This document shows, one piece after another, positions 19,358 through 53,437 of a stretch of DNA of 64,000 nucleotides (position 1 is its first letter; each line of letters begins with the position of its first letter). The position numbers and the translations under genes are program-made. The stretch is from the IMG/VR virus record IMGVR_UViG_3300037455_001397, positions 1-64,000 of that record; one strand, 5' to 3'. The DNA is from a virus (taxonomy: Duplodnaviria > Caudoviricetes). The notes under the pieces are model-generated. The model did not search any database and was not told where the DNA came from. It saw only the letters and a list, made by a program, of their open reading frames with translations.

Positions 19358-19418
19358 GTTTCTGGTCTCTATTGGTATATTCACCTGTTTTGGGACAACC
19401 ATTCGGTAGAATTTTAGG
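19358..19418 (-). promoter_or_regulatory. 61-bp leader element of left operon (inverted copy of 23544-23604)
   Basis: 57/61 identical with a 33-bp perfect core. Confidence 0.85.
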
Positions 19419-19482: not shown

Positions 19483-20040
19483 TCACATATAGAAGGAGTC
19501 AGACTTGTCCAGATAGCGGTCAAGCATGTTCTCCTTGAACTTCTGGCGGATGGGACAGATATAGGCTTCCAGGAGGTACGAGGGGGAAATCCTCATGTGT
19601 CTGGCAATCCGGGTAATGGACTCCCCGTTCATGAGGTGCTTGCAGATTCTTTTCTCCACGGGGGAAAGCATTTCAAAGACGATCTGCAGGTCCATCTTCA
19701 GGCAGAGAAGGCGAATGGAGTTGTGGGCGTCGACCAGGTCGTTGCCGGACAAATCATCCAGGCTGACCACGTCATTGTTTGTTATGGACATGTAGCGTTT
19801 GATGACATTGTATTTGCGGCGGTCGATGACATGGCGGAAGAACGTTCCGATGGAGACCTTGTCGGGATCATACTTCGGAATCGCCTTACTGATCGCGATC
19901 CAGAGATCCTGGGTGATTTCATCGTAATAGTTTCCGAGTGCGGGATAGGCTTTGACAGCCGTTTTCGCGACGGCTCTGACAGATTCCCGGATGTACTTGT
20001 TTTCGTAGACTTCCTCGAATGTGACGGGTGTGTTGCTCAT
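19483..20040 (-). CDS. sigma70/ECF-like sigma factor
   Basis: EITQDLWIAISKAIPKYDPDKVSIGTF (region 2); LSPVEKRICKHLMNGESITRIARHM (region 4). Confidence 0.78.
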   Translation of the reverse strand: MSNTPVTFEEVYENKYIRESVRAVAKTAVKAYPALGNYYDEITQDLWIAISKAIPKYDPDKVSIGTFFRHVIDRRKYNVIKRYMSITNNDVVSLDDLSGNDLVDAHNSIRLLCLKMDLQIVFEMLSPVEKRICKHLMNGESITRIARHMRISPSYLLEAYICPIRQKFKENMLDRYLDKSDSFYM

Positions 20041-20389
20041 GGTGTTTTCTCCAACATGTTTTTGTTTTTGCTCCCGCACCGTGCGGAAGCTCCGAACTTG
20101 TTGGGGGATTGCACCAAAAACCGGCAGAAACTCGAAAAAAAATGGAAACTGAGCTTAGAATTGATGAAGAATTGCAGAAGTCGATTGCACGAGAAAACGG
20201 CAAATTGCAATTCGACCATCAAAAACGAGGGAGAAGAAACGGTTAAAAACATCCCCGGAAGAATTGCAAAAAGGGGGTAGAGGCACCGGCAAATTGCAAT
20301 TGCTTGATACGGTTGTCAGGGCAAAAAAAAGGCGCGGCCCAGAGTCTCAGACTCCAGACCGCGGCCTAAGAAAGAGAATGCTAACTCTT

Positions 20390-22493: not shown

Positions 22494-22614
22494 AATGCTT
22501 CGTTCCTTTCCTCAGCACTTGCTGAGGTTATACCTTTATCTCTTCATTGGCTCGCGGCCGGGAGGTGTTCCAACCGGCGAGGAGCGCAGTAGATCATCTT
22601 GCTGCACTGGATAT

Positions 22615-22716
22615 AATATATCACAAGGGAATCCCAAAATCAAGCCTAATTAGGACAAAAAATCGCAGAAAATATCTTAAAACCTATTTGACTTTCATCC
22701 TAAAACGATATATAGT
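22615..22716. promoter_or_regulatory. Divergent sigma70 promoter pair (lysis/lysogeny switch-like)
   Basis: Minus strand TTGATT-17-TATATT (22643-22615); plus strand TTGACT-17-TATAGT (22688-22716); CCTAATTAGG palindrome between them. Confidence 0.7.
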
Positions 22717-22752
22717 ATATTATTAATTCATTATCAACGAAAGGAGACTCCC

Positions 22753-23466
22753 ATGGAACAGCATCCGGAACTTCTGAAAGCGCTTTTCGACTGGCAGAAC
22801 GAGAAGGGCTACACAGATGCAAAGCTGTGTCGGCTTCTCGCCATAAACAAGAACACCATCATCAACTGGAGAAAATACGGCCTGACTTCCTCTCGGTCGA
22901 TTGAGAAAGTCCAGAACTTCCTCAGATACGGTAGTGTCGACCCGGCAAGTGAAATTGAACCGCAGAACTCCAGGATTCCGACATATCCCATTATTAGCGA
23001 CGCGACGGCTGCAACGGTCAACAGGGCTTATATGTCGGCCATTGATTTCGCTACGGAGTATGCGGAGGATTACGTTTCATTCAGCAAAGGCTGTCCCGGA
23101 GACTTCGTGATCAAGGTGTCGGGAGATTCGATGGCTCCCTGGTATCCGGAAGGAACTCTCCTGCTTGTCCGACCGAACGTGAAGCTTGTGAACGGAGATC
23201 GCGTTGTCGCCGTCCTTGCCGATGGTACGACGCTCTTCAAGATTTTCGGAGAGGATGAAAGCTCGATCTTCCTGTTTTCCGAGAATCGGCAGGACGGGCA
23301 GGACTATATGTTCTCCAAAACGGACTTCAATGGTGTCCGGGCGCTGTATTTGGTCGTACAGTCCATGCGTGACGAACGGGCTCTGGATTCGGCCAAGGAG
23401 CGTCAGGGAATCCGATCCGAGATTTCAAGCAGGATCATGGAGATGAAGAAGAAGAAAAACAAATAA
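22753..23466 (+). CDS. CI-like repressor (HTH + S24 peptidase)
   Basis: AKLCRLLAINKNTIINW; FVIKVSGDSMAP; TLFK. Confidence 0.85.
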   Translation: MEQHPELLKALFDWQNEKGYTDAKLCRLLAINKNTIINWRKYGLTSSRSIEKVQNFLRYGSVDPASEIEPQNSRIPTYPIISDATAATVNRAYMSAIDFATEYAEDYVSFSKGCPGDFVIKVSGDSMAPWYPEGTLLLVRPNVKLVNGDRVVAVLADGTTLFKIFGEDESSIFLFSENRQDGQDYMFSKTDFNGVRALYLVVQSMRDERALDSAKERQGIRSEISSRIMEMKKKKNK

Positions 23467-23543: not shown

Positions 23544-23604
23544 CCTAAAATTCAACCGAATGGTAGCCCCGAAACAGGTGAATATACCAATAGAGACCAG
23601 AAAC
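23544..23604 (+). promoter_or_regulatory. 61-bp leader element of right operon
   Basis: CCTAAAATTCAACCGAATGG..AAACAGGTGAATATACCAATAGAGACCAGAAAC. Confidence 0.85.
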
Positions 23605-25711: not shown

Positions 25712-25915
25712 ATGACCGAACACGGAAAAATTACAGAAACCATCGTCAAAAACGCATCCGGTCCGAAGTCCGCGGAAGTAGATGGACAGCGAGTTGAACA
25801 GCATACTCTGACCGAGCAGATTGCCGCCGACAAATACCTTGCATCCAAAGATGCAGTGAAGCGCCGCGGGAGCGGGCTGAAGTTTTCCAAGATGACACAT
25901 TCGGGGGCTGTGTAA
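25712..25915 (+). CDS. Small head protein upstream of portal (gpW-like position)
   Basis: GPKSAEVDGQRVEQHTLTEQIAADKYL; AGGAG RBS. Confidence 0.7.
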   Translation: MTEHGKITETIVKNASGPKSAEVDGQRVEQHTLTEQIAADKYLASKDAVKRRGSGLKFSKMTHSGAV

Positions 25916-27363
25916 TGCTTGAGGTGCTGAAGAACTTTTTCCGCACCTCGAAGCCACAACAGGAACAACACTTTCATCGCCCGATCCGGGCGAGGTTCGA
26001 TGCCGCGCAGACCACGCGGGACAACGCGAAGCACTGGGCGTATGCCGACCAGCTCTCCGCGGACATGGATGCCTCGCCGGAGGTCCGACGTACCCTGCGT
26101 ATGCGTTCGCGTTACGAGGTGGCGAACAACAGTTATGCGCGTGGCCTCGTCCAGATGCTCGCGAACGACACCATCGGCACTGGTCCAAGGCTGCAGATGC
26201 TCTCCGCGGACGAAACATTCAACGATGAGGTTGAGCGGGCGTTCATGAGGTGGGCGGAAGCGGTCAGGTTGGCCCCGAAGCTCCGCACCATGCGGATGGC
26301 TCGATGCCAGGACGGCGAGGCGTTCGCCGTGCTCGCGACGAACCCGAAAGTCCGCAGTCCCGTCAAGCTGGACTTGATGCTGATTGAGGCCGACCGGGTA
26401 TCAGGCGGCATCAAGCTTCTGGATGACGGGCAGTCTGTCGACGGCATCACGTTCGATGAGTGGGGTAACCCGACCTCGTACCGGGTATTGAAATACCATC
26501 CGGGCGATGACAGATTCGCCACAGGCGATGAGGCCGTCGATGTTCCCGCCGAATGGATGATCCACATCTTCCGTCAGGACAGACCGGGACTGCATCGTGG
26601 TGTGCCGGAGCTGACCTCGGCGCTGCCTTTGTTCGCCCAGCTTCGACGATACAATCTTGCCGTCCTGAGCGCAGCCGAAGCCGCTGCCGACTTCGCCGCC
26701 ATCCTCTATACGGATGCCCCGCCGAACGGAGAGGCAGATGAAGTCGAACCGATGGACACCATCCCGCTCGAACGGAACATGATGCTCACCGTCCCCTCGG
26801 GCTGGAAGATGGATCAGCTCGACCCGAAGCAGCCTGCGGCCAACCATGCGGAATTTGTGAAAATCATCCTGAGCGAGATCGCCAGATGCGCCGTTACCAC
26901 CTACGGAACACTCGCCGGCGACTACAGCGGACACAACTACGCCTCAGGCCGCCTCGACAACCAGATCTACCACAAGTCCATTCTGGTCGACAGGTCGTTC
27001 TGGGAAACCGAGGTGCTGAACAGAATTTTCGAGGCGTGGTTCCGGGAGTATCTCCTTACCGAGAATCTTGTTCCGACCGAGGAAAACCACACATGGTTCT
27101 GGGATGGCTTCCCGCACGTCGACCCCAACAAGGAGGCGACCGCACAGGAACGCCGCCTTGCGAACCTCACCACGACGCTCGCCGCCGAGTGTGCGAAGGA
27201 CGGCAGGGACTATCTCGGCGTCCTGCAGCAGAGGGCGAAGGAGATCAAGCTGATGAAATCTCTGGGGATTCCGATCCCAGGTGAGAACGCGAAAGAACAA
27301 AACAACACCTCAGAACCGGGAGAGTCCGGCGAGGAAGAAACTCAAACAAACGAGGTTACATGA
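25915..27363 (+). CDS. Portal protein, lambda family
   Basis: LRMRSRYEVANNSYARG, DGEAF, RPGLHRGVP, GDYSGHNYASGRL, HVDPNKE. Confidence 0.92.
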   Translation: MLEVLKNFFRTSKPQQEQHFHRPIRARFDAAQTTRDNAKHWAYADQLSADMDASPEVRRTLRMRSRYEVANNSYARGLVQMLANDTIGTGPRLQMLSADETFNDEVERAFMRWAEAVRLAPKLRTMRMARCQDGEAFAVLATNPKVRSPVKLDLMLIEADRVSGGIKLLDDGQSVDGITFDEWGNPTSYRVLKYHPGDDRFATGDEAVDVPAEWMIHIFRQDRPGLHRGVPELTSALPLFAQLRRYNLAVLSAAEAAADFAAILYTDAPPNGEADEVEPMDTIPLERNMMLTVPSGWKMDQLDPKQPAANHAEFVKIILSEIARCAVTTYGTLAGDYSGHNYASGRLDNQIYHKSILVDRSFWETEVLNRIFEAWFREYLLTENLVPTEENHTWFWDGFPHVDPNKEATAQERRLANLTTTLAAECAKDGRDYLGVLQQRAKEIKLMKSLGIPIPGENAKEQNNTSEPGESGEEETQTNEVT

Positions 27364-46533: not shown

Positions 46534-46819
46534 CAAACAATTCCCCGGCTAGGCCTCTGTCCGTTTTCGGGTAAGCCCAACCTTGCCGGGCTTTTTTTCT
46601 CGTCCAGGTCTGACCTCGGTTAGGCCTGGCATTTTTTTGCCTTTGCGCTGGAAGACACAGCGGCTTTCGTGGCGATCTTTCGGCTATGTTTCGCGCAACG
46701 CATAAGGCCTTGGTTCAGGGGCATCCTGCCAAGGGGGCAAGATCGCACAAATCGGCCTTTCTGGGCGTTTATTGGCATAAATCATAATGGACCTGCGCGA
46801 GCAAACGCCTCAAAACTTT

Positions 46820-47060
46820 CTGCGAAGAATTATAGAAAAACCGCTTGACTTTTCTGTAAAAGCATAATCGGAGAATCTTCGATTTTTCTTTCGTTTTCGA
46901 CTTGCTTTTTGGAAAAAGGGATAGTCGAAGAAAAACTGGTCTTTCTTCGGAAACCGACTTGATATTGAGGCAAACAATGCTCAAGAAGAAAGTTCAATTA
47001 AAAACGCTTATTTCTCTGTAAAAGACTGGCTATTAACGAATAGTACGCTAAATTAACAAC
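46820..47060 (+). promoter_or_regulatory. Phased repeat array plus cassette promoter 1
   Basis: CTTG at 46844, 46901, 46958, then GACTGGCTATTAACGAA at 47024. Confidence 0.8.
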
Positions 47061-47107
47061 AGAACGGGAAGCATAGGGCGACCCACACGACAACAAGGAG
47101 ATGCAAC

Positions 47108-47368
47108 ATGAAAAAGAGAATCGAATGCAAGATTCCCGAATCCTTCTGGAACACCGAAGCCGGTCAGAAAATCGCCGGAGCAATGCACAGCGATGGCTGG
47201 GAAGCTTCGGACTGCCTCACGAGCGTGATAGACCTTCTCGAAGATGGCATCAGGAACTCGCAAGACATGGCAATCGTCGAGGAACTGAAGAAAGCACAGA
47301 AGCAGGTGGCCGCCGCCAAGAAAGCCCTCTGGAAAGCATCCGACATCCTCCGCGAAACAGGATTCTGA
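47108..47368 (+). CDS. Cassette hypothetical protein
   Basis: 86 aa, AAGGAG RBS, followed by hairpin. Confidence 0.7.
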   Translation: MKKRIECKIPESFWNTEAGQKIAGAMHSDGWEASDCLTSVIDLLEDGIRNSQDMAIVEELKKAQKQVAAAKKALWKASDILRETGF

Positions 47369-47439
47369 ACCGCAACACTCGAACACCCCGCTGCCCTGAG
47401 CGACGGGGCTCTCTTTTCGACAATCCTTTTGAAAAAAAG

Positions 47440-47640
47440 ATTATCGAAGAAAGATCGGTTTTTCTTCGGAAACCGACTTGATATTGAGGCGAATCATGCT
47501 CACGAAGAAAGTTCTATTAAAAACGCTTATTTCTCTATAAAAGACTGGCTATTAACGAATAACGCGCTAAATTGTTAATGTCGAGCGGGCGAATGGAACA
47601 CCTGCGAAAGAAACAAAAAACTGCCAACAGACGGAGGCAC
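47440..47640 (+). promoter_or_regulatory. Repeat unit plus cassette promoter 2 and stem-loop leader
   Basis: Near-duplicate of 46925-47055; GACTGG at 47543. Confidence 0.8.
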
Positions 47641-47643
47641 AAG

Positions 47644-47955
47644 ATGGACGAAGAAAAAATCCTCAGAGACACCGAAACCGGCGAAGAATTCACCTATGAG
47701 GAAATCGAAGCCGAGTACGAACGACTCAAACGCGATGGGGAAACCGAAGCGGAAACAATCGGGGACTACATCGAAAACATCACGGCCCCAAACGGAACAT
47801 GCGAGTGGATCGACGAAACCTGGCACAAATGCGAATGGTGCGGTGAAATCTACCCCGAAAGCGACCTGAGAGAGGAGAAGGACCTCGGCTACCTCTGCGA
47901 ACACTGCATCCTTGCCATCTCGAGCCGCGGCGAAGACCTCTACCTGAAATACTGA
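47644..47955 (+). CDS. Acidic Zn-finger cassette protein
   Basis: CEWC..CEHC, very acidic; GGAGG RBS. Confidence 0.7.
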   Translation: MDEEKILRDTETGEEFTYEEIEAEYERLKRDGETEAETIGDYIENITAPNGTCEWIDETWHKCEWCGEIYPESDLREEKDLGYLCEHCILAISSRGEDLYLKY

Positions 47956-48011
47956 AACCCAAACGGGAGCCCGCCGAACGGCGGGTTCCCAAACAACCTA
48001 CGGAGGACAAA

Positions 48012-48446
48012 ATGGAACAGTCAATCATCGACAAACTGAACGCCCCCATACAGAAGGACATGCTTCGAGTCGAGGGAATCATGAAAAAACTGGAGATGAA
48101 TTTCGCGGAAGGCTACATGGACGAGGTCGCGGAAGCGATATGCAGAATCCGTCCGCAAACACAGACAAAAGTACGCCCGATTGATTTGAAAGAAGCATGG
48201 GAGTTTTCCAATAGAGCAATAAGAGTTGCGACCGACCTTGCCCGGATAAAACTTGCCGAAAAAATCAAGGCTGAATACCTGAGTCGAGCAACTGCCGATG
48301 AAACCAAGTTGAAAGGCTGGTCAAATAAAGCCGCACTGTACTTCATCTACGGAATGGATTACGAACGCCCCATCACTGAAAAGCTTGATAAGGCGGTCGA
48401 GGCAGAAGTCTACGATGCAATCAAAAAATACCTCGGATTCGAATAA
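48012..48446 (+). CDS. Cassette hypothetical protein
   Basis: 144 aa, GGAGG RBS. Confidence 0.7.
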   Translation: MEQSIIDKLNAPIQKDMLRVEGIMKKLEMNFAEGYMDEVAEAICRIRPQTQTKVRPIDLKEAWEFSNRAIRVATDLARIKLAEKIKAEYLSRATADETKLKGWSNKAALYFIYGMDYERPITEKLDKAVEAEVYDAIKKYLGFE

Positions 48447-48629
48447 TCCGAACCCAACGCCCGCGCGACAGCGGGCTTTATTCGTTTAGTTGGGGCTATG
48501 TGTCGCGTGACGTGCCGGATTGACCTATTACAAAATGCGACCCCCTATGCTAACTCGGACAAAGAGCCGTTTCCGGCCGTTGTTTGCCAAAAATCATAAT
48601 TGACCAGGCCGAGCAAACGTCCAAAATCT

Positions 48630-49000
48630 TTTCTCGATATTTCTCGGAAAAAGCCGGAATAAAACTTGACTTTTCCGAAAAAGCATAATCGGAGAATCTT
48701 CGATATTTCTTCCGAAAAAGACTTGACTTTATCAAAAAGGGATTATCGAAAGAATGTTCGATATTTCTTTCGTTTATGGCTGGACTTTTGTTTTATCCAT
48801 GCTCCGGCGTTCTTCGCGTCTTGATAGACATTCTAAAACGACCCCGTTCCGAGCTCGGAATAAAAGTCGAATAAAAGTCCTTATTTCTTCGATTAACGAC
48901 TGGCTATTAACGAATTATGCGCTTAATTAATTGATGTCGAGCGGGCGGCACGGGCCGCCTGCGAACCAAACGAAAAATGCCAACCCTGATGGAGGCAAAC
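48630..49000 (+). promoter_or_regulatory. Phased repeat array plus cassette promoter 3 and leader
   Basis: CTKG at 48665, 48722, 48780; GACTGG at 48898. Confidence 0.8.
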
Positions 49001-49252
49001 ATGAGCAAGACGAACATCAAGCTCAACCTGGAAGGAGTGGACGGGAATGCGTTCTGCATCCTGGGCCACGCGATGCGCGCACTGAGACAGAACCACAAGA
49101 TGGAACTCTGGGACGAGTTCCACGCCGAAGCCACCTCCGGCGACTACAACAAACTCCTCTGCACGGTCTCCGACTGGTTCGACGTCTGCTTCGGCGACGA
49201 AGACGAAGATGAAGACGAGTACGACTTCGACTGCGAAGGCGACGAAGACTGA
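49001..49252 (+). CDS. Small acidic phage protein (DGNAF motif)
   Basis: LEGVDGNAFCILG..ATSGDYNKLL; D/E tail. Confidence 0.75.
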   Translation: MSKTNIKLNLEGVDGNAFCILGHAMRALRQNHKMELWDEFHAEATSGDYNKLLCTVSDWFDVCFGDEDEDEDEYDFDCEGDED

Positions 49253-49308
49253 ACCCCCAACAGCATGGCCCGCCGCCTGGCGGGTCATGCCCAACCGGAG
49301 AACAAAAC

Positions 49309-49539
49309 ATGAAAAGACTGCAAACCGAAAGCCTGATCGCCGCGATGAACAGCATCTGCTATGTGGCCACGGGCGAACCGAGCGGAATCTCCGAGGTCTG
49401 GAACGGAGACCTTGACGAGCTCGAAGAACACCTCGAAAAGATTGAAATCTACGCCGAGGACGAAGGAATGACCGAAACCGCCAAGGAGCTGTTCGCGGCC
49501 GCCCACCACATCATCGAAGCCTTCCGAAAAGAAGAGTGA
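49309..49539 (+). CDS. Small acidic cassette protein
   Basis: 76 aa with RBS; terminator at 49551-49580. Confidence 0.7.
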   Translation: MKRLQTESLIAAMNSICYVATGEPSGISEVWNGDLDELEEHLEKIEIYAEDEGMTETAKELFAAAHHIIEAFRKEE

Positions 49540-49579
49540 ACATCGAACACGCCCGGCCGGATGCCGGGCAACTCTTTTT

Positions 49580-49823
49580 TCGCTTTTTCTTCGCATTTCG
49601 ACTTGCTATTCAGAAATACCATGCTCCGAAAGAATCTTCGTTATTTCTTCGCTTTCACACTTGACATTCCGATAAGCTCGTTATGAGCAGAATAAAAAGA
49701 AAGATTCGTATTTCTTCGATAAAAGACTGGATTAAGTTTCTTTAAGCGCTTAATTAATAGCAGAGCGAGGCTGAACGAGGTCGCGCGAACCAAACGAAAA
49801 ACTCCAAACTGACGGAGGAAACG
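49580..49823 (+). promoter_or_regulatory. Phased repeats plus cassette promoter 4 and leader
   Basis: CTTG at 49602, 49660; GACTGG at 49725. Confidence 0.75.
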
Positions 49824-50090
49824 ATGATCGAAATCATCAAGCATGACGGAGCCTGGACAGTGGCCAAGGCAGTGTTCGAAGGCAAAAACTATCACATCGA
49901 AACCAAGCACTTCGAGCTGCCGAGCGAATTCGGAATCAACAACGGGCGCATCAGCAAGCTGTTCATCAGCGAGGGGACGAGCTGGAACCCTGACAAATGC
50001 CGGTGCGCCTACGACCGCGGCTGGGATCGCAGACCGAGAACGAAGGCGGCCAAGGCCATCTACAATGAAATCCTCGCGATGTACAACTGA
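49824..50090 (+). CDS. DUF7678-like phage protein
   Basis: PSEFGINNGRISKL..YDRGWD. Confidence 0.7.
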   Translation: MIEIIKHDGAWTVAKAVFEGKNYHIETKHFELPSEFGINNGRISKLFISEGTSWNPDKCRCAYDRGWDRRPRTKAAKAIYNEILAMYN

Positions 50091-50102
50091 GGAGGAGCGA
50101 CC

Positions 50103-50567
50103 ATGGCAAACAACTGCTTCATCGAAATCTCGCTCGAAACCGAAACCTCCGAACAGGCCAAGGGGCTCCGCAAGGAGCTCCGGGCCGCCTTCCGGCAGGC
50201 TGCTCGCGAAAACGTCGGAGCCTACTTCGGGAGCGACCGTTACTTCTTCGACGGCAAAGTCGAACAGGACGGAACGGAGGTGTTCATCGGCGGCTGGGTC
50301 AAGTGGGGATACAGCGACGGCGAGTTCATCGACATGTTCAGCTGGCTCCGCCGCAAGACCGCAATCAAGAAGTTCCACATGCACTACGAGGAGCTCATGA
50401 CCGACCAGTACGGCGAATACGAACTTCACGCGGACGGCACGGTCTGGAACAACTTCCTGCTCGAAAAAGATTTCCCGACCGAGACCGACGACTACGAAGC
50501 CTACTGCGAAAAGGTCGAGGAAGCCTTCCGCACAAAACCCGCCACAAGATTCATCGAGGTCGGCTGA
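50103..50567 (+). CDS. Hypothetical protein (YubB/DUF1281 ferredoxin-like?)
   Basis: MANNCFIEI..GWVKWG..YEE. Confidence 0.6.
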   Translation: MANNCFIEISLETETSEQAKGLRKELRAAFRQAARENVGAYFGSDRYFFDGKVEQDGTEVFIGGWVKWGYSDGEFIDMFSWLRRKTAIKKFHMHYEELMTDQYGEYELHADGTVWNNFLLEKDFPTETDDYEAYCEKVEEAFRTKPATRFIEVG

Positions 50568-50640
50568 ACAGAAACCACCAACGGTCCCGCCACCCTGGCG
50601 GGGCCGAAATATCCACACCCCAACATAAGGAACACTCACA

Positions 50641-50826
50641 ATGGAAACCAAAACCGTCGAACAGTCCATGAAGGAACTCGAAAACCGTGTGCATCTTCTG
50701 ATGGAAGAACTCTCGGCCGCCGGGCAGGAAAACCTCGCCAATCGCATCCAGGACATCTGGGATGAGACCAACTTCCTCCGCGACGAACACCCGGACTTCA
50801 ATTTCGGGAAGTGGCGCGAAGCGTAA
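50641..50826 (+). CDS. Small cassette protein
   Basis: 61 aa with AAGGA RBS. Confidence 0.6.
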   Translation: METKTVEQSMKELENRVHLLMEELSAAGQENLANRIQDIWDETNFLRDEHPDFNFGKWREA

Positions 50827-50893
50827 CCGCCAGTATTCGGCAATAATGGCTTTCCCGTAAAGTCAAGCTCAAAATCGAAGAAAACCGAATCTT

Positions 50894-50955
50894 TCCGCAG
50901 ATTCGTCGGACGACCTCTTCGCCTCCGTCAGGGCTTTCGTTCGCGAATCTGCGGA
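50894..50955 (+). ncRNA. Candidate 62-nt hairpin RNA element with anti-Shine-Dalgarno loop (copy A)
   Basis: TCCGCAGATTCG..CGAATCTGCGGA stem; loop TCGCCTCCGTCAGGGCT shared with copy B. Confidence 0.5.
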
Positions 50956-51164
50956 TTTCTATGCACGGGTATCGCAATTATGCGAAACGTCGCTCGCTTA
51001 TGCCGGAACGTGCGATCATGCGCCTGGGGTCGCATGTTTCAAATCGAACGCCGGGGATACGTCGGCCAAATACCGGCCTTTCTGGCGGGCGTTTGGCGTT
51101 TTGAATAGAGATCAGACGCGCAAAGCGGCCCGAAACCGGGCATCGGATGTTGTCGGTACCGAAA

Positions 51165-51358
51165 ATCTTTTTTCGATATTTCTTCGATCTTCGGCTGGAT
51201 TTATCAACTTTCCATGCTCCCGAATAAAGTCCGAATTAAGTTCGAATAACCTCGGTTTCCGACTGGCTATTCACGAATAGAACGCTAAATTTACAAACGA
51301 GCGCGGGAGATACGGAAAACCCGCGGAAACCGAAACCCAAACGAAGGAGAACAGAAAA
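51165..51358 (+). promoter_or_regulatory. Repeat unit plus cassette promoter 5 and leader
   Basis: CTGG at 51195; GACTGG at 51261; CGCGGG..CCCGCG leader hairpin. Confidence 0.75.
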
Positions 51359-51592
51359 ATGCCAGACAGATTTCTGACGGCAACGAAATGTGCAAGATGC
51401 GGCGGGTCGCTTGATGGCGGCAGGATAATGAGCCGGTTCAATGAGGATGTCCTCTGCCTCGACTGCGAACGCGAAGAGCGCCAGCATCCGGACTACCAGA
51501 AGGCTGCCGATGCGGAACTCGCCGCTGTTCGTCGTGGCGACATGAACTTCCCCGGCATCGGCTGGCCGGGAAAGAACGGTCGCGTGAAGTGA
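51359..51592 (+). CDS. Small Zn-finger phage protein
   Basis: CARCGGSLDGGRIMSRFNEDVLCLDC..GDMNFPGIG. Confidence 0.75.
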   Translation: MPDRFLTATKCARCGGSLDGGRIMSRFNEDVLCLDCEREERQHPDYQKAADAELAAVRRGDMNFPGIGWPGKNGRVK

Positions 51593-51633
51593 AACAAGAA
51601 CAACAGGCCGTCGCCAGAAGGTGGCGGCCAGTA

Positions 51634-52092
51634 AATCTTTCTTCGATATTTCTTGATATTTCGCTTGCTTTTCCGAAAAGAGCATAATCAAAGAATCTTC
51701 GATATTTCTTCCGAAAAAGACTGGATTATATTGAAACCGCGTTACGGAAAGAAAGTTCGATAATTCTTCGCTTTTCCGCTTGACTTCCCCTTTTTCCATG
51801 CTCGAAAGAATAATCGATATTTCTTTCGTTTTCCACTTGCTATTCTGCTTTTCCATGCTAGAAAAGAATAATAGATATTTCTTCGCTTTCTGACTTGATA
51901 TTTCTCTTTTACCTCATTTCGAGCAGAAAGACGGCTTTATTAAAATAATCGGAAGAAAGTTCGATAAAAAGCGTTATTTCTTCGATAAACGACTGGCTAT
52001 TAACGCTTTCCATGCTTAATTAACTAATGTCGAGCGGGATGCACGGGCAACCCGCGAACCAAACAAGAATGCCAACCAAGACGGAGGCAAAC
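51634..52092 (+). repeat. Five-unit 57/58-bp array plus cassette promoter 6 and leader
   Basis: CTKG at 51664, 51721, 51779, 51836, 51894; GACTGG at 51991. Confidence 0.88.
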
Positions 52093-52986
52093 ATGAGCGA
52101 GAACAACATCCTCGACACCGCGAAAACCCTGGGCTTCGGAACGGAGCTCGAATACACTCACATCAGCCGCGAAGGAGCCGCGAGAGCAATCCAGAGCGTG
52201 GTCGGCGGCAACATCAGCCACACCGGCGGGAGCTACGACGCCTGGACGGTCACCGCCCCTGACGGACGGAAATGGAAGGCGGTCAGCGATGGCAGCCTCA
52301 GCGGAACCTCGGCAGAGGTGGTCACGCCCATCCTGCACTGGGAAGACTTCGATACCCTGCAGAAGGTGGTGCGCGCCCTGCGCCACGCCGGAGCCAAGAC
52401 CCCGGCCTGCACGAGCCAGCACGTCCACGTCGGAGTCGAAGACTTCACGGCGGCGCAAATCGCGAACTTCGCGAGAATCTGGTACAAGCAGGAAAAGCTC
52501 ATCCTCAAGGCGGTCGGAACCCTGCCGAGCCGCCTCGCACACTACACGAAGCCGACCGACCGCGAGTTCATCGACCGCCTCGAAAAGATGAAACCGCAGA
52601 CCCGCCAACAGCTGAACATCGCCTGGTACGGGTACGCGAACCCGCGTCCTGCCCACTACGACAGCACCCGCTACCGCGCCATCAACCTCAACAACGTGTG
52701 GACCACGGGGACGGTCGAGCTGAGGTGCTTCAATGGCTGTAATCATGCGGGCAAGGTCAAAACAGCCGCGATTCTTGCCCTGATGATCGCCGCCAAGGCC
52801 AAGACCGCGAAGTGCGCGAGCACGAAGAAGCCGCGCGAGTACAGCGAGGAGAGCGCCGCCTACGATATGCGGGTGTTCCTCCTCCACCTCAAGGCAATCG
52901 GGCCGGAGTTCAAAAACTTCCGCAAGCACCTCCTCGACAACCTGCCGGGGAACAAGGCGTGGAAGCACGGCAGGCCGAACGCCTGA
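52093..52986 (+). CDS. Putative amidoligase (COOH-NH2 ligase type 2)
   Basis: FGTELE, WKAVSDGSL, AEVVTPIL, HVHVG, RYRAIN, TVELRCFNG. Confidence 0.88.
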   Translation: MSENNILDTAKTLGFGTELEYTHISREGAARAIQSVVGGNISHTGGSYDAWTVTAPDGRKWKAVSDGSLSGTSAEVVTPILHWEDFDTLQKVVRALRHAGAKTPACTSQHVHVGVEDFTAAQIANFARIWYKQEKLILKAVGTLPSRLAHYTKPTDREFIDRLEKMKPQTRQQLNIAWYGYANPRPAHYDSTRYRAINLNNVWTTGTVELRCFNGCNHAGKVKTAAILALMIAAKAKTAKCASTKKPREYSEESAAYDMRVFLLHLKAIGPEFKNFRKHLLDNLPGNKAWKHGRPNA

Positions 52987-53027
52987 CCGACCAGCCGGAG
53001 GGGGCCGGACAACCGGCCTCCTCACCT

Positions 53028-53194
53028 CAGCATGGCTTGCCGAAAAAGCAAGCGGTTCTTTGAAATAAAACGAAAGAAATTCGGATAATCCGGTTTTCGG
53101 AATAGCAAGTCCAAACCGAAAGAAAAACGCGACTTTCTGCCGATTATGCCTTTCCCGAAAAGTCAACCGGAAATCCGAAGAAAAACGAATCTTT
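53028..53194 (-). repeat. Three inverted copies of the 57/58-bp unit
   Basis: CAAG/CAAC at 53049, 53106, 53164; AGCATGG-N13-CAAG is the reverse complement of the unit. Confidence 0.8.
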
Positions 53195-53256
53195 TCCGCA
53201 GTTTTGCCGGGGACCTCACTCGCCTCCGTCAGGGCTGTTTCCGGCGAAACTGCGGA
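53195..53256 (+). ncRNA. Candidate 62-nt hairpin RNA element (copy B)
   Basis: TCCGCAGTTTTGCCGG..CCGGCGAAACTGCGGA stem with compensatory changes relative to copy A. Confidence 0.5.
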
Positions 53257-53437
53257 TTTTAATTCGAGCATTCTAAATCGCTTCCCCTATGCCGATTATG
53301 CCAAACGTCGCTCGCTTTGGGCTCAACGTGCGATTCGGCAGCCGGGGAAGCACCCCCCAAATCCAACCGCATAAATCAACCCCCACAAACGGCCCCGGAA
53401 CGGCCACAAAACCCGTAAAGAATAGGAGGTCAGACCT

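Follow-up and report, generated by a model that had tools for sequence, protein, structure and literature searches.

Phased arrays of promoter-like units without a −10 element precede accessory operons in a temperate phage of rumen Lentisphaeria

In a temperate phage whose host group is the rumen Lentisphaeria, six small accessory operons are preceded by arrays of a 57/58-bp unit that copies the upstream half of a host promoter, lacks its −10 element and is constrained in both spacing and helical phase. In our leading reading, to which we give a little under an even chance, the units would be tiled, non-initiating docking sites for RNA polymerase (RNAP) that alternate with a phage-specific palindrome bound by a second factor, and would control weak cassette promoters.

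Arrays of a 57/58-bp unit upstream of accessory operons

The window, the whole 64,000-nt stretch of DNA that was analysed, is contained in a 98.5-kb phage record. Units were scored with a position weight matrix (PWM) derived from the units themselves, and all matches of at least 29 bits in the whole record lie within 46.8–53.2 kb, with the single exception of a canonical promoter at 75255. Most forward units score 45–57 bits and the inverted copies 25–33 bits; the PWM regained every forward start and, with these lower scores, the inverted copies of the initial annotation. The motif TTTCTT-N9-ACTKG (up to one mismatch) was found 17 times (2.15 expected), and 16 of these occurrences are inside the region. 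This excess of unit motifs, together with the periods of 57 and 58 that Tandem Repeats Finder returned, excludes chance. The window and 49 related rumen loci hold 254 distinct units; these loci, found by way of the proximal promoter motif, stem from a small number of rumen studies, and their lineages are therefore not independent. No description of such an arrangement was found in the literature searched.

Table 1 Arrays, proximal promoters and inverted copies between 46.8 and 53.2 kb
Feature	Position	Strand	Content	Evidence or distance	Target or context
Array 1	46811..46982	+	three 57-bp units, CTKG 46844/46901/46958	PWM 36–53 bits; repeat families D3/D4	47108 gene, downstream
Proximal promoter 1	47006..47054	+	T-tract, GACTGGCT, 17-nt spacer, TAAATT in host −10 register	68 bp past last unit of Array 1	
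Array 2	47417..47501	+	partial unit and one full unit, CTTG 47477	PWM 52 bits; repeat D4, duplicate of 46908–47054 at 88%	47644 operon
Proximal promoter 2	47525..47573	+		68 bp past Array 2 unit	
Array 3	48632..48804	+	three units, 48665/48722/48780; tail to 48897 of a degenerate unit and 11-bp A-tract repeats (120-bp linker family)	PWM; Tandem Repeats Finder	
Proximal promoter 3	48880..48928	+	TTAATT in −10 register	120 bp past last unit	before 49001 operon
Array 4	49569..49684	+	two units, 49602/49660	PWM 51 and 55 bits	
Proximal promoter 4	49707..49755	+		67 bp past last unit	before 49824–50826 operon
Single inverted unit	50843..50900	−	CTTG 50867	PWM 29 bits; inverted repeats I4/I5/I15/I16	directly after end of 49824–50826 operon
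Array 5	51162..51219	+	one CCATGCTC-class unit, CTGG 51195	PWM 46 bits	
Proximal promoter 5	51243..51291	+		68 bp past Array 5 unit	before 51359 gene
Array 6	51631..51918	+	five units, 51664/51721/51779/51836/51894, spacing 57-58-57-58; box classes in order GCATAAT, GCGTTAC, CCATGCTC, CCATGCTA, CCTCATT	PWM; Tandem Repeats Finder	
Proximal promoter 6	51973..52021	+		99 bp past last unit	before amidoligase gene (52093–52986)
Inverted array	53028..53200	−	three units, CTKG 53167/53109/53052	PWM 26–33 bits; I1/I2/I3/I6/I7	aimed into 3' end of amidoligase gene

In each of the six operons, a leader hairpin accompanies the proximal promoter, and terminator-like hairpins lie at 46604, 47393, 48459 and 49551. 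Between the window and one related locus (L057), cassette content and order differ with the breakpoints at the modules; the arrangement is of the PeSL or moron type, with a promoter and a stem-loop or terminator around small accessory ORFs and recombination at the modules. Another related locus (L070) has changed in copy number by a whole unit. Array 6 is conserved, with orthologous arrays in nine other distinct sequences. The middle unit of the three-unit inverted array is deleted in most relatives, and the spacing of the inverted arrays is lost in most of them (80–81 bp). Long linkers hold degenerate, out-of-register units, and a unit of 52 bp occurs in locus L074.

Match to host promoters and the missing −10 element

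The host consensus was built from 30 tRNA promoters of two host genome bins and provides, as a by-product, a promoter consensus for uncultured rumen Lentisphaeria. It comprises a T-tract UP region, CTTGAyTTTT, a 17-nt spacer and TGn-TATATTAA; CTTG-N19-TATAnT is present in 21 of the 29 tRNA promoters scored and the N20 form in 5, with T-tracts upstream. The unit logo, TTTCTTC-N8/9-gACTTGAyTTT, carries T-tract UP-like DNA and a −35 TTGAyT in the register of the host logo. When applied to the host promoters, the phage-unit PWM scored +3.9 versus −49.8 for shuffles (sd 16), and the UP part alone had its best register at shift 0. In the commonest unit class, the match to the host runs from the UP region and the −35 across the spacer to the extended −10 TG and T(−12), beyond which the left palindrome arm occupies the place of A(−11) to T(−7). 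TG at the extended −10 position (−15/−14) is found in 74 of 75 distinct CCATGCTC-class units compared with 13 of 23 host promoters and is absent from the other three unit classes; after T(−12), the CCATGCTC-class units have CGGAA, CGAAA or CCGGC in place of ATATT.

Hexamers compatible with a −10 element are depleted about five-fold in the upstream units, where nAnnnT at a 16–18-nt spacer occurs in 7 of 184 distinct units (3.8%) against 19.8% expected from local shuffles. The stricter TAnnnT occurs in one of the 184, namely the canonical promoter at 75255. Because the upstream half of a promoter is copied without the DNA-melting −10, the units resemble non-firing RNAP docking sites. Among all copies, the gene-proximal ones alone carry an A/T-rich hexamer in the −10 register. 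The motif of these copies, GACTGG-N-GCTWAATT, occurs six times in the whole record, always on the + strand and in the array region. With CTGG as the −35 and mostly TTAATT as the −10 (TAAATT in three of the six in the window, TTAATT in most relatives), the proximal promoters are weak as judged by consensus. Their spacer is unusually conserved, and this, together with the T at −11 in most relatives, suggests that they may not be read by the plain σ70 holoenzyme.

We considered whether the units are instead genuine tandem promoters for an alternative or remodelled polymerase (a phage σ, a group-3 host σ or T4-like σ appropriation), with CATAAT, GATTAT and CCTCATT, 11–13 nt after TTGACT, as −10 elements. 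The conserved boxes and a σ-like protein encoded by the phage at 19483–20079 would fit, as would TTGACT-N12-CATAAT, which has the geometry of T4 middle promoters, and CTTGAC-N12-CCTCATTT, which resembles the σ32 consensus. However, the "box" of the largest class is no more than the extended −10 TG of the host with T(−12), in the exact host register, no phage RNA polymerase was seen, and the element at 23544–23604 heading the structural-gene arm, with a reported inverted copy at 19358–19418, is unlike any unit; we regard such promoters as unlikely. Canonical tandem promoters were not supported, as a σ70 consensus scan of the region gave no excess (4 versus 3.2 expected). Nor was there support for a σ32-type promoter, that is, RpoH with CTTGAA-N-CCCCATNT upstream of host genes: the best family match for RpoH in the hosts reached 164 bits against a cut-off of 323, and CTTGA-N11-15-CCYCATNT was not enriched there (three matches versus six for the reversed-pattern control).

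The palindrome reported initially, AAGAA-N3-TCGA-N3-TTCTT, is above chance as a dyad (nine matches with up to two mismatches versus 0.48 expected), but it is asymmetric. The right arm, TTTCTTC, is nearly invariant, with T at four positions in 192–207 of 210 units, and lies where the host-type T-tract is; the degenerate left arm departs in 41–81 units per pair without a matching change, double changes that restore pairing being few. The units fall into ordered classes with the boxes GCATAAY, GSRTTAY, CCATGCTC and CCTCATT, whose order is the same across relatives, and the boxes are 90–100% conserved compared with 30–70% for spacer and linker columns. Four parts of the unit have no counterpart in host promoters and are specific to the phage: the left arm, the TCGA at the dyad centre, the cGA before CTTG and the non-TG boxes.

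These parts would also suit an operator array, in which a phage or host transcription factor would bind each palindrome as a dimer, possibly with the box and cGA, and assemble cooperatively, with repression or activation of the proximal promoter as the outcome. The promoter-like parts would be inherited from a duplicated promoter. Such an array would be compatible with polymerase docking. The excess of dyads, whose arms can be extended to CGAAAGAA/TTCTTTCG, argues for it, as does the location of the dyad centre near −55, some 20 nt upstream from the −35-like box, a position used by class I-type phage activators. Nevertheless, conservation is strongly one-sided, the most conserved element of the unit, ACTTG, lies outside the dyad and is identical to the host −35, and cooperative binding on one helix face would not usually go with half-integer spacing. 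We consider an operator array possible but rather doubtful. CI, earlier listed as a candidate binder, is an unlikely one because its control region has different palindromes, and the CI operator reading was not supported.

A centromere-like or iteron array of the F sopC type, bound by a ParB-like or replication protein, would likewise consist of tandem direct repeats with an internal inverted repeat in each, and a ParB-like gene was reported in the initial annotation. We find this, or an array of RNA or single-stranded DNA hairpins, extremely improbable: there are six separate arrays, each co-oriented with and directly upstream of an operon, and their units match host promoter halves. The hairpin was not supported, as the arm changes are uncompensated and an Rfam search gave no match. 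The proposal that forward and inverted arrays fold back in single-stranded DNA lacks support, given the same lack of compensation, and the inverted arrays are weaker and mostly out of spacing.

Spacing, helical phase and the proposed docking mechanism

Spacing was claimed at the outset to be kept while the sequence drifts, and the counts agree. Among the 104 distinct neighbour pairs spaced 56–58 bp in the window and related loci, 103 are 57 or 58 bp apart, and the same spacing was obtained with a loose anchor (288 matches versus 14 in shuffles). Orthologous arrays differ at 17.7% of sites and are nearly gap-free, the sole gaps being of 58 (a whole unit), 2 and 1 nt; per column, gap events are some ten-fold more frequent in the linker next to the arrays. 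The arrays appear to be under selection against insertions and deletions. The last unit lies 67–68 bp before the proximal copy in four of six cases, as first measured, and the distances from last unit to promoter change in steps of ~10.4 bp, so that the half-turn phase is maintained. For the linker lengths of 14 families, which are related and in some cases linked by 10-bp duplications, 10.4 bp fits best of all periods from 5 to 30 bp (R 0.69, p ~6e-4), and the mean phase of 0.51 turn is that of 57.5 bp.

The units could in principle be recombination by-products of repeated PeSL- or moron-like cassette modules, the promoter fragments merely offering homology for shuffling. The cassette differences and breakpoints in L057, the whole-unit change in L070, the irregular units of the long linkers and of L074, and the decay of the inverted arrays in relatives all point that way. 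Yet paralogous units keep their length and motifs at a mean identity of only 57%, and the constant class order, the rarity of gaps, the depletion of −10-compatible hexamers and the helical phasing of the linkers also speak against by-products, which we judge very unlikely.

In the docking reading, each unit would be a host σ70-type promoter truncated just ahead of the −10 hexamer. The host holoenzyme would dock through the α C-terminal domains and σ regions 4 and 3, and since it could not melt the DNA, the arrays would tile closed, non-initiating complexes. The 57.5-bp unit would approximate the footprint of one such complex, with neighbours half a helical turn out of phase, and the array would set the amount of polymerase that reaches the proximal promoter, either as a local reservoir feeding it or as a sink or roadblock insulating each cassette. 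The phage-specific parts of the unit imply a second DNA-binding factor, which could gate docking and whose site would overlap the place of the −10 in one unit as well as the UP region of the next. We infer polymerase binding, the sign of its effect and the second factor from these sequence patterns. Polymerase or regulator decoys on alternating helix faces, one of the possibilities raised in the initial annotation, is the reading best supported by the host-register match, the missing −10 and the half-turn linker phase, and would correspond to this mechanism. A more specific version, which we offer tentatively and hold to be somewhat unlikely in full, is that head-to-tail, −10-less copies of the host's strongest promoter architecture (UP, −35, extended −10 TG), footprint-sized and offset by half a turn, would park several holoenzymes before each weak accessory promoter as a DNA-only cis reservoir or insulator gated by the palindrome-binding factor.

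The docking model has its limits, in that TG is present in only one class (75 of ~184 units) and the GCATAAY, GSRTTAY and CCTCATT boxes, though conserved, are outside its explanation. As the left arm, TCGA and cGA are foreign to host promoters, a dedicated factor might explain the entire unit. If polymerase docks, the strength of a natural promoter would be set by ordered non-initiating sites rather than by the promoter itself or a classical factor, which would bear on the competition of a single phage genome, incoming or resident, for host polymerase and on insulation between accessory cassettes. With its strict period, its half-turn phase and "bind" elements cleanly separated from "melt" elements, the system lends itself to direct testing.

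Comparison with known systems

The PeSL cassettes of T4-type phages are described as having a single strong σ70-like promoter and a terminator stem-loop (PMC2839356, PMC4122927). The phage cassettes share with the PeSLs so described the repetition of a promoter and stem-loop module around small, mostly unknown accessory ORFs, the presence of a promoter and a terminator in every cassette, and differences between close relatives whose breakpoints lie at the modules. Neither tandem −10-less copies nor a fixed 57/58-bp period nor helical phasing is described there for the PeSLs, in contrast to the phage arrays. The morons of lambdoid phages are comparable cassette modules. A short motif also recurs at control regions in the stoperators of mycobacteriophage L5, the conserved inverted repeats of phiC31 and the CUP repeats of IncN plasmids, and F sopC is a tandem array of 43-bp repeats with an internal dyad. 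To our knowledge, none of these copies the upstream half of a host promoter or has a 5.5-turn period; like them, the phage has one motif recurring at many accessory or early control regions.

The "promoter islands" of E. coli are reported to be H-NS-occupied and to have an excess of sites that can serve as a polymerase interference platform and as silencers (PMC3661553, PMC7054387). The phage arrays resemble the islands so reported in placing dense promoter-like sites beside horizontally acquired genes. Promoter islands consist of A/T-rich sites that overlap, are irregularly arranged and harbour potential start points, whereas the phage units are non-overlapping and strictly periodic, with a consensus −35 and without a −10. 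UP elements and extended −10 elements are "mix and match" elements of strong promoters (PMC2613000), and at the Mu Pm promoter, polymerase contacts upstream DNA without an activator (PMC4287176, PMC4390567). The phage units share four promoter elements with these systems, and upstream polymerase contact without initiation would be possible in them as well; those promoters are single, whereas in the phage from one up to five or six head-to-tail repeats of the upstream half stand before the genuine promoter.

The cassette region and its arrays

The window makes up the first 64 kb of the 98.5-kb virus record, which has a GC content of 50.8%. Downstream of the tail-fibre region lies a run of small operons, the last of which is the amidoligase gene, and each is preceded by array units and a gene-proximal promoter copy (the proximal copy). 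Two cassette proteins, 103 and 77 aa long, have zinc-ribbon motifs of the form CxxC-N19-CxxC; neither has a Pfam match, and the 77-aa protein matches PHROG 27033, a family of unknown function. Long open frames also run across the operons on the minus strand. Since the amidoligase on the plus strand is confirmed by Pfam, at least the 415-aa antisense frame is a shadow ORF. A conserved 5' leader comes after each proximal promoter; in it, a GC-rich hairpin starting GAGCGGG, with variable stems, is followed by GAACCAAACGAAAAA and a strong GACGGAGG Shine-Dalgarno sequence. Conserved non-coding blocks of ~150-200 bp (repeat families D8, D9 and D17) stand before the long arrays and after the inverted ones, and are common to L057, a related IMG/VR contig. 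In the right third of the record the genes are not core phage genes but belong either to a defence or accessory island or to flanking host DNA.

Features of the record and the cassette region
Feature	Position	Strand	Remarks
Small sigma-like protein	19483-20079	−	
CI control region	22600-22735		canonical promoters of host type, diverging: TTTGACT-N-TATAGT (towards CI) and CTTGATTTT-N-TATATT (minus strand)
S24 CI-like repressor	22753-23466		
Lambda-type portal	25915-27363		
Conserved non-coding blocks	46640-46830, 48470-48640, 51050-51160; also 50919-51049, 53220-53367		D8, D9, D17
Conserved 5' leaders	47055-47107, 47574-47643, 48929-49000, 49756-49823, 51292-51358, 52022-52092		
Small operons	starts 47108, 47644, 49001, 49824, 51359, 52093	+	
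Protein with zinc-ribbon motifs, 103 aa	47644-47955		
Protein with zinc-ribbon motifs, 77 aa	51359-51592		
11-bp A-tract repeats	48858-48879, 51220-51249		GAATAAAAGTC / CCGAATAAAGT, in linkers
Long open frames	49641-50843, 51236-51856, 52024-53271	−	400, 206 and 415 aa
Long hairpins	50896-50955, 53199-53256		
Amidoligase_2 gene	start 52093	+	Pfam E 3e-49
Genes after amidoligase			GGACT, DUF3846, DNA methylase, ResIII helicase
Right third of record (L145/L146)	64-98.5 kb		SF1/SF2 helicases, MrfA-type Zn domain, Ser/Thr kinase, DUF2357, Sel1, ankyrin-repeat proteins

A 58-nt position weight matrix (PWM) made from the 15 forward units of the initial annotation recovered all of them and its four inverted copies, and across the whole record, matches of at least 29 bits are confined to 46.8-53.2 kb, apart from a canonical promoter at 75255. 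The palindrome AAGAA-N3-TCGA-N3-TTCTT, given there as part of the unit consensus, has nine matches versus 0.48 expected, and TTTCTT-N9-ACTKG has 17 versus 2.15. The 57-58-bp repeat was returned by Tandem Repeats Finder as periods 57 and 58. There are six copies of the proximal motif GACTGG-N-GCTWAATT, all in the array region and on the plus strand, at 68, 68, 120, 67, 68 and 99 bp from the last unit, so that the reported distance of 67-68 bp in four of six cases holds.

Searching with the proximal promoter pattern identified 44 rumen metagenome loci and four genome-bin contigs, one bin being named Lentisphaeria bacterium UBA1732; relatives were thus chosen through the proximal motif and derive from a few rumen studies. 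An exact unit 16-mer gave 56 single, chance-like matches in viral contigs, a proximal-box 18-mer gave none, and a strict three-box pattern matched nothing in host genomes but the prophage copy; as it was overly strict for the window as well, that outcome is uninformative. No DNA similar to the record was found in the phage collection. L057 has the array architecture in common at 74-90% identity, with a different cassette set. Applied to the window together with 49 loci that total 226 kb, the PWM found 335 units (254 distinct), and the claim of conserved spacing is borne out by distinct neighbour pairs at 57 bp (n = 47), 58 bp (n = 56) and 56 bp (n = 1). A looser anchor, T[TA]TCT[TC]-N10-12-[CT]T[TG]G[AC], gave 288 matches versus 14 in shuffles and left the spacing peak unchanged.

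The units are ordered classes, not a homogenised repeat. Named by their boxes, they typically run GCATAAY, GSRTTAY, CCATGCTC (1-2 copies), CCTCATT and then the proximal promoter, an order kept across relatives, and paralogous units in the window have a mean identity of only 57%. Ten distinct orthologous amidoligase arrays differ by 17.7% per pair over 291 array columns, where the only gaps are one of 58 nt, a whole unit, one of 2 nt and one of 1 nt; their 52-column linker differs by 31% and has ~10 times more gap events per column. Array gaps are therefore rare relative to the linker and either whole-unit or tiny, which indicates that spacing is under constraint and copy number shifts by whole units. 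Recombination scars and a centromere-like array are rival readings of such a repeat.

Units compared with host promoters

Host promoters were sampled from the upstream DNA of 30 tRNA genes (loci L106-L135) in G001 and G002, the two genome bins behind the related loci L102 and L103. The resulting consensus, drawn from tRNA genes only and with the host assigned through prophage-bearing bins, has two T-tracts, (g)CTTGAyTTTT, a 17-nt spacer, TGn and TATA(T/G)TAA; this promoter consensus of uncultured rumen Lentisphaeria is a by-product of the analysis. The distance from CTTG to the hexamer is N19 in 21/29 scored promoters and N20 in 5/29, and an extended −10 TG stands at −15/−14 in 13/23. The CI promoter of the phage and the site at 75255 obey the same rule.

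Scored with the unit PWM, host promoters reached +3.9 versus −49.8 for shuffles, and the UP-like upstream part alone matched best at shift 0, with a drop on either side. In the CCATGCTC class, the commonest (75 distinct units), TG occupies the extended −10 position in 74/75 and T the −12 position, after which CGGAA, CGAAA or CCGGC stands in place of the host ATATT. The pattern nAnnnT at a 16-18-nt spacer was found in 3.8% of 184 distinct upstream units versus 19.8% expected from local shuffles, and TAnnnT only once, at the canonical promoter at 75255. This in-register match without a −10 thus equates the unit with the stretch of a host promoter between about −69 and −12. As judged from these alignments, the unit appears to hold all polymerase elements that bind duplex DNA and none that nucleates melting. 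In the −10 register, only the proximal copy has an A/T-rich hexamer: three window copies read TAAATT, and the remaining three and most relatives read TTAATT. With a weak −35 (CTGG), the proximal copy would by consensus be a poor promoter.

Several other promoter types were considered. Canonical tandem sigma-70 promoters were rejected, as a plain consensus scan of the array region gave no excess and no −10 lies in register. A mis-spaced −10 or T4 MotA-like geometry was rejected because CCATGCTC supplies the extended −10 TG and T(−12) in exact host register; it is possible for the GCATAAY and GSRTTAY classes only. Sigma-32-like promoters were also rejected, since no RpoH above the family cut-off was found in the hosts and their motif shows no enrichment; the groES upstream region is uninformative here because another frame, presumably dnaK, directly precedes the gene. 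Promoters of an alternative or remodelled polymerase are a further rival; no phage RNA polymerase was found in the record beyond the window. Small ORFs across the units were rejected as well: although 57 bp would hold 19 codons, the frame is lost where 57 and 58 alternate, and a Shine-Dalgarno sequence is absent.

Palindrome, inverted copies and linker phase

The dyad is lopsided. Its right arm is nearly invariant and coincides with the host-type T-tract, and its left arm deviates in 41-81 of the 210 units with no compensating change, evidence against a hairpin in RNA or ssDNA; this candidate, which has no Rfam match, was rejected. The left arm, the central TCGA, the cGA before CTTG and the three non-TG boxes are conserved with no counterpart in host promoters, so a second binding specificity on the units is likely. 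A pure operator array is the corresponding rival. CI, listed among the candidate binders in the initial annotation, is unlikely to be the factor, as its control region has different palindromes (GATATAATATATC type); the AT-rich palindromes GGATATAATATATC and ATATATAGTATAT there are probably the CI operators.

Weaker than the forward units, the inverted copies are nonetheless real. They lie just after two operons and directly upstream of two long hairpins, and the three-unit inverted array has lost its middle unit in most relatives, leaving the outer units 80-81 bp apart. With copies this weak and the middle unit mostly deleted, we saw no support for the suggested fold-back pairing with forward arrays. 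The hairpin stems differ by compensatory changes (GCAGATTCG/CGAATCTGC versus GCAGTTTTGCCGG/CCGGCGAAACTGC), and the loop common to both, CGCCTCCGTCAGGGC, has complementarity to the ribosome-binding sites of the cassettes (GACGGAGGC). A T-run follows the second hairpin, which may therefore also terminate plus-strand transcripts.

Two units span 115 bp, equal to 11 helical turns at 10.45 bp each. Between the last full unit and the proximal promoter, the distance belongs to one of several classes, 67-69, 77-79, 87-90, 99-100, 115-120 or 130-131 bp, with 134 in addition; the lengths 124 and 144 can be split as 57+67 and 57+87. Within a 5-30 bp range, the best period for 14 sequence families was 10.4 bp (R 0.69, Rayleigh p ~6e-4), with some families related through 10-bp duplications or 11-bp A-tract repeats (GAATAAAAGTC), one family ranging over 115-118 bp, and degenerate, out-of-register units inside long linkers. 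The mean linker phase of 0.51 turn equals that of 57.5 bp. Copy-number change of the A-tract repeats may generate the ~10-bp length classes. By eye, A/T tracts inside the unit are not spaced at ~10.5 bp.

A proposed docking model and known systems

The host holoenzyme itself would be the simplest candidate to recognise a consensus −35 combined with a UP-like T-tract and an extended −10 TG, and it should halt at the closed complex on a unit lacking A(−11) and T(−7). A closed complex covers about −55 to −5. Such a footprint would occupy roughly one unit, and half-turn phasing would place neighbouring polymerases on opposite helix faces. Because host-type binding elements occur without the melting positions and the footprint approximates unit size, we read the arrays as putative tiled polymerase docking sites, which would govern polymerase supply to the weak proximal promoter and could be gated by a palindrome-binding factor. 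Their net effect could be positive, as a reservoir, or negative, as a sink, roadblock or insulator.

Our literature search, of incomplete coverage and hence giving absence of evidence only, found no published account of −10-less promoter copies in arrays that are periodic and helically phased. The cassette layout matches that of moron-type modules. It also matches that of PeSL modules as these are described (PMC2839356, PMC4122927). The idea of docking arrays is preceded by the E. coli promoter islands, described as non-productive polymerase-binding clusters (PMC3661553, PMC7054387), for which a negative effect of the sink, roadblock or insulator type has been proposed (PMC7054387). At the Mu Pm promoter, polymerase is documented to touch upstream promoter DNA without initiation (PMC4287176).
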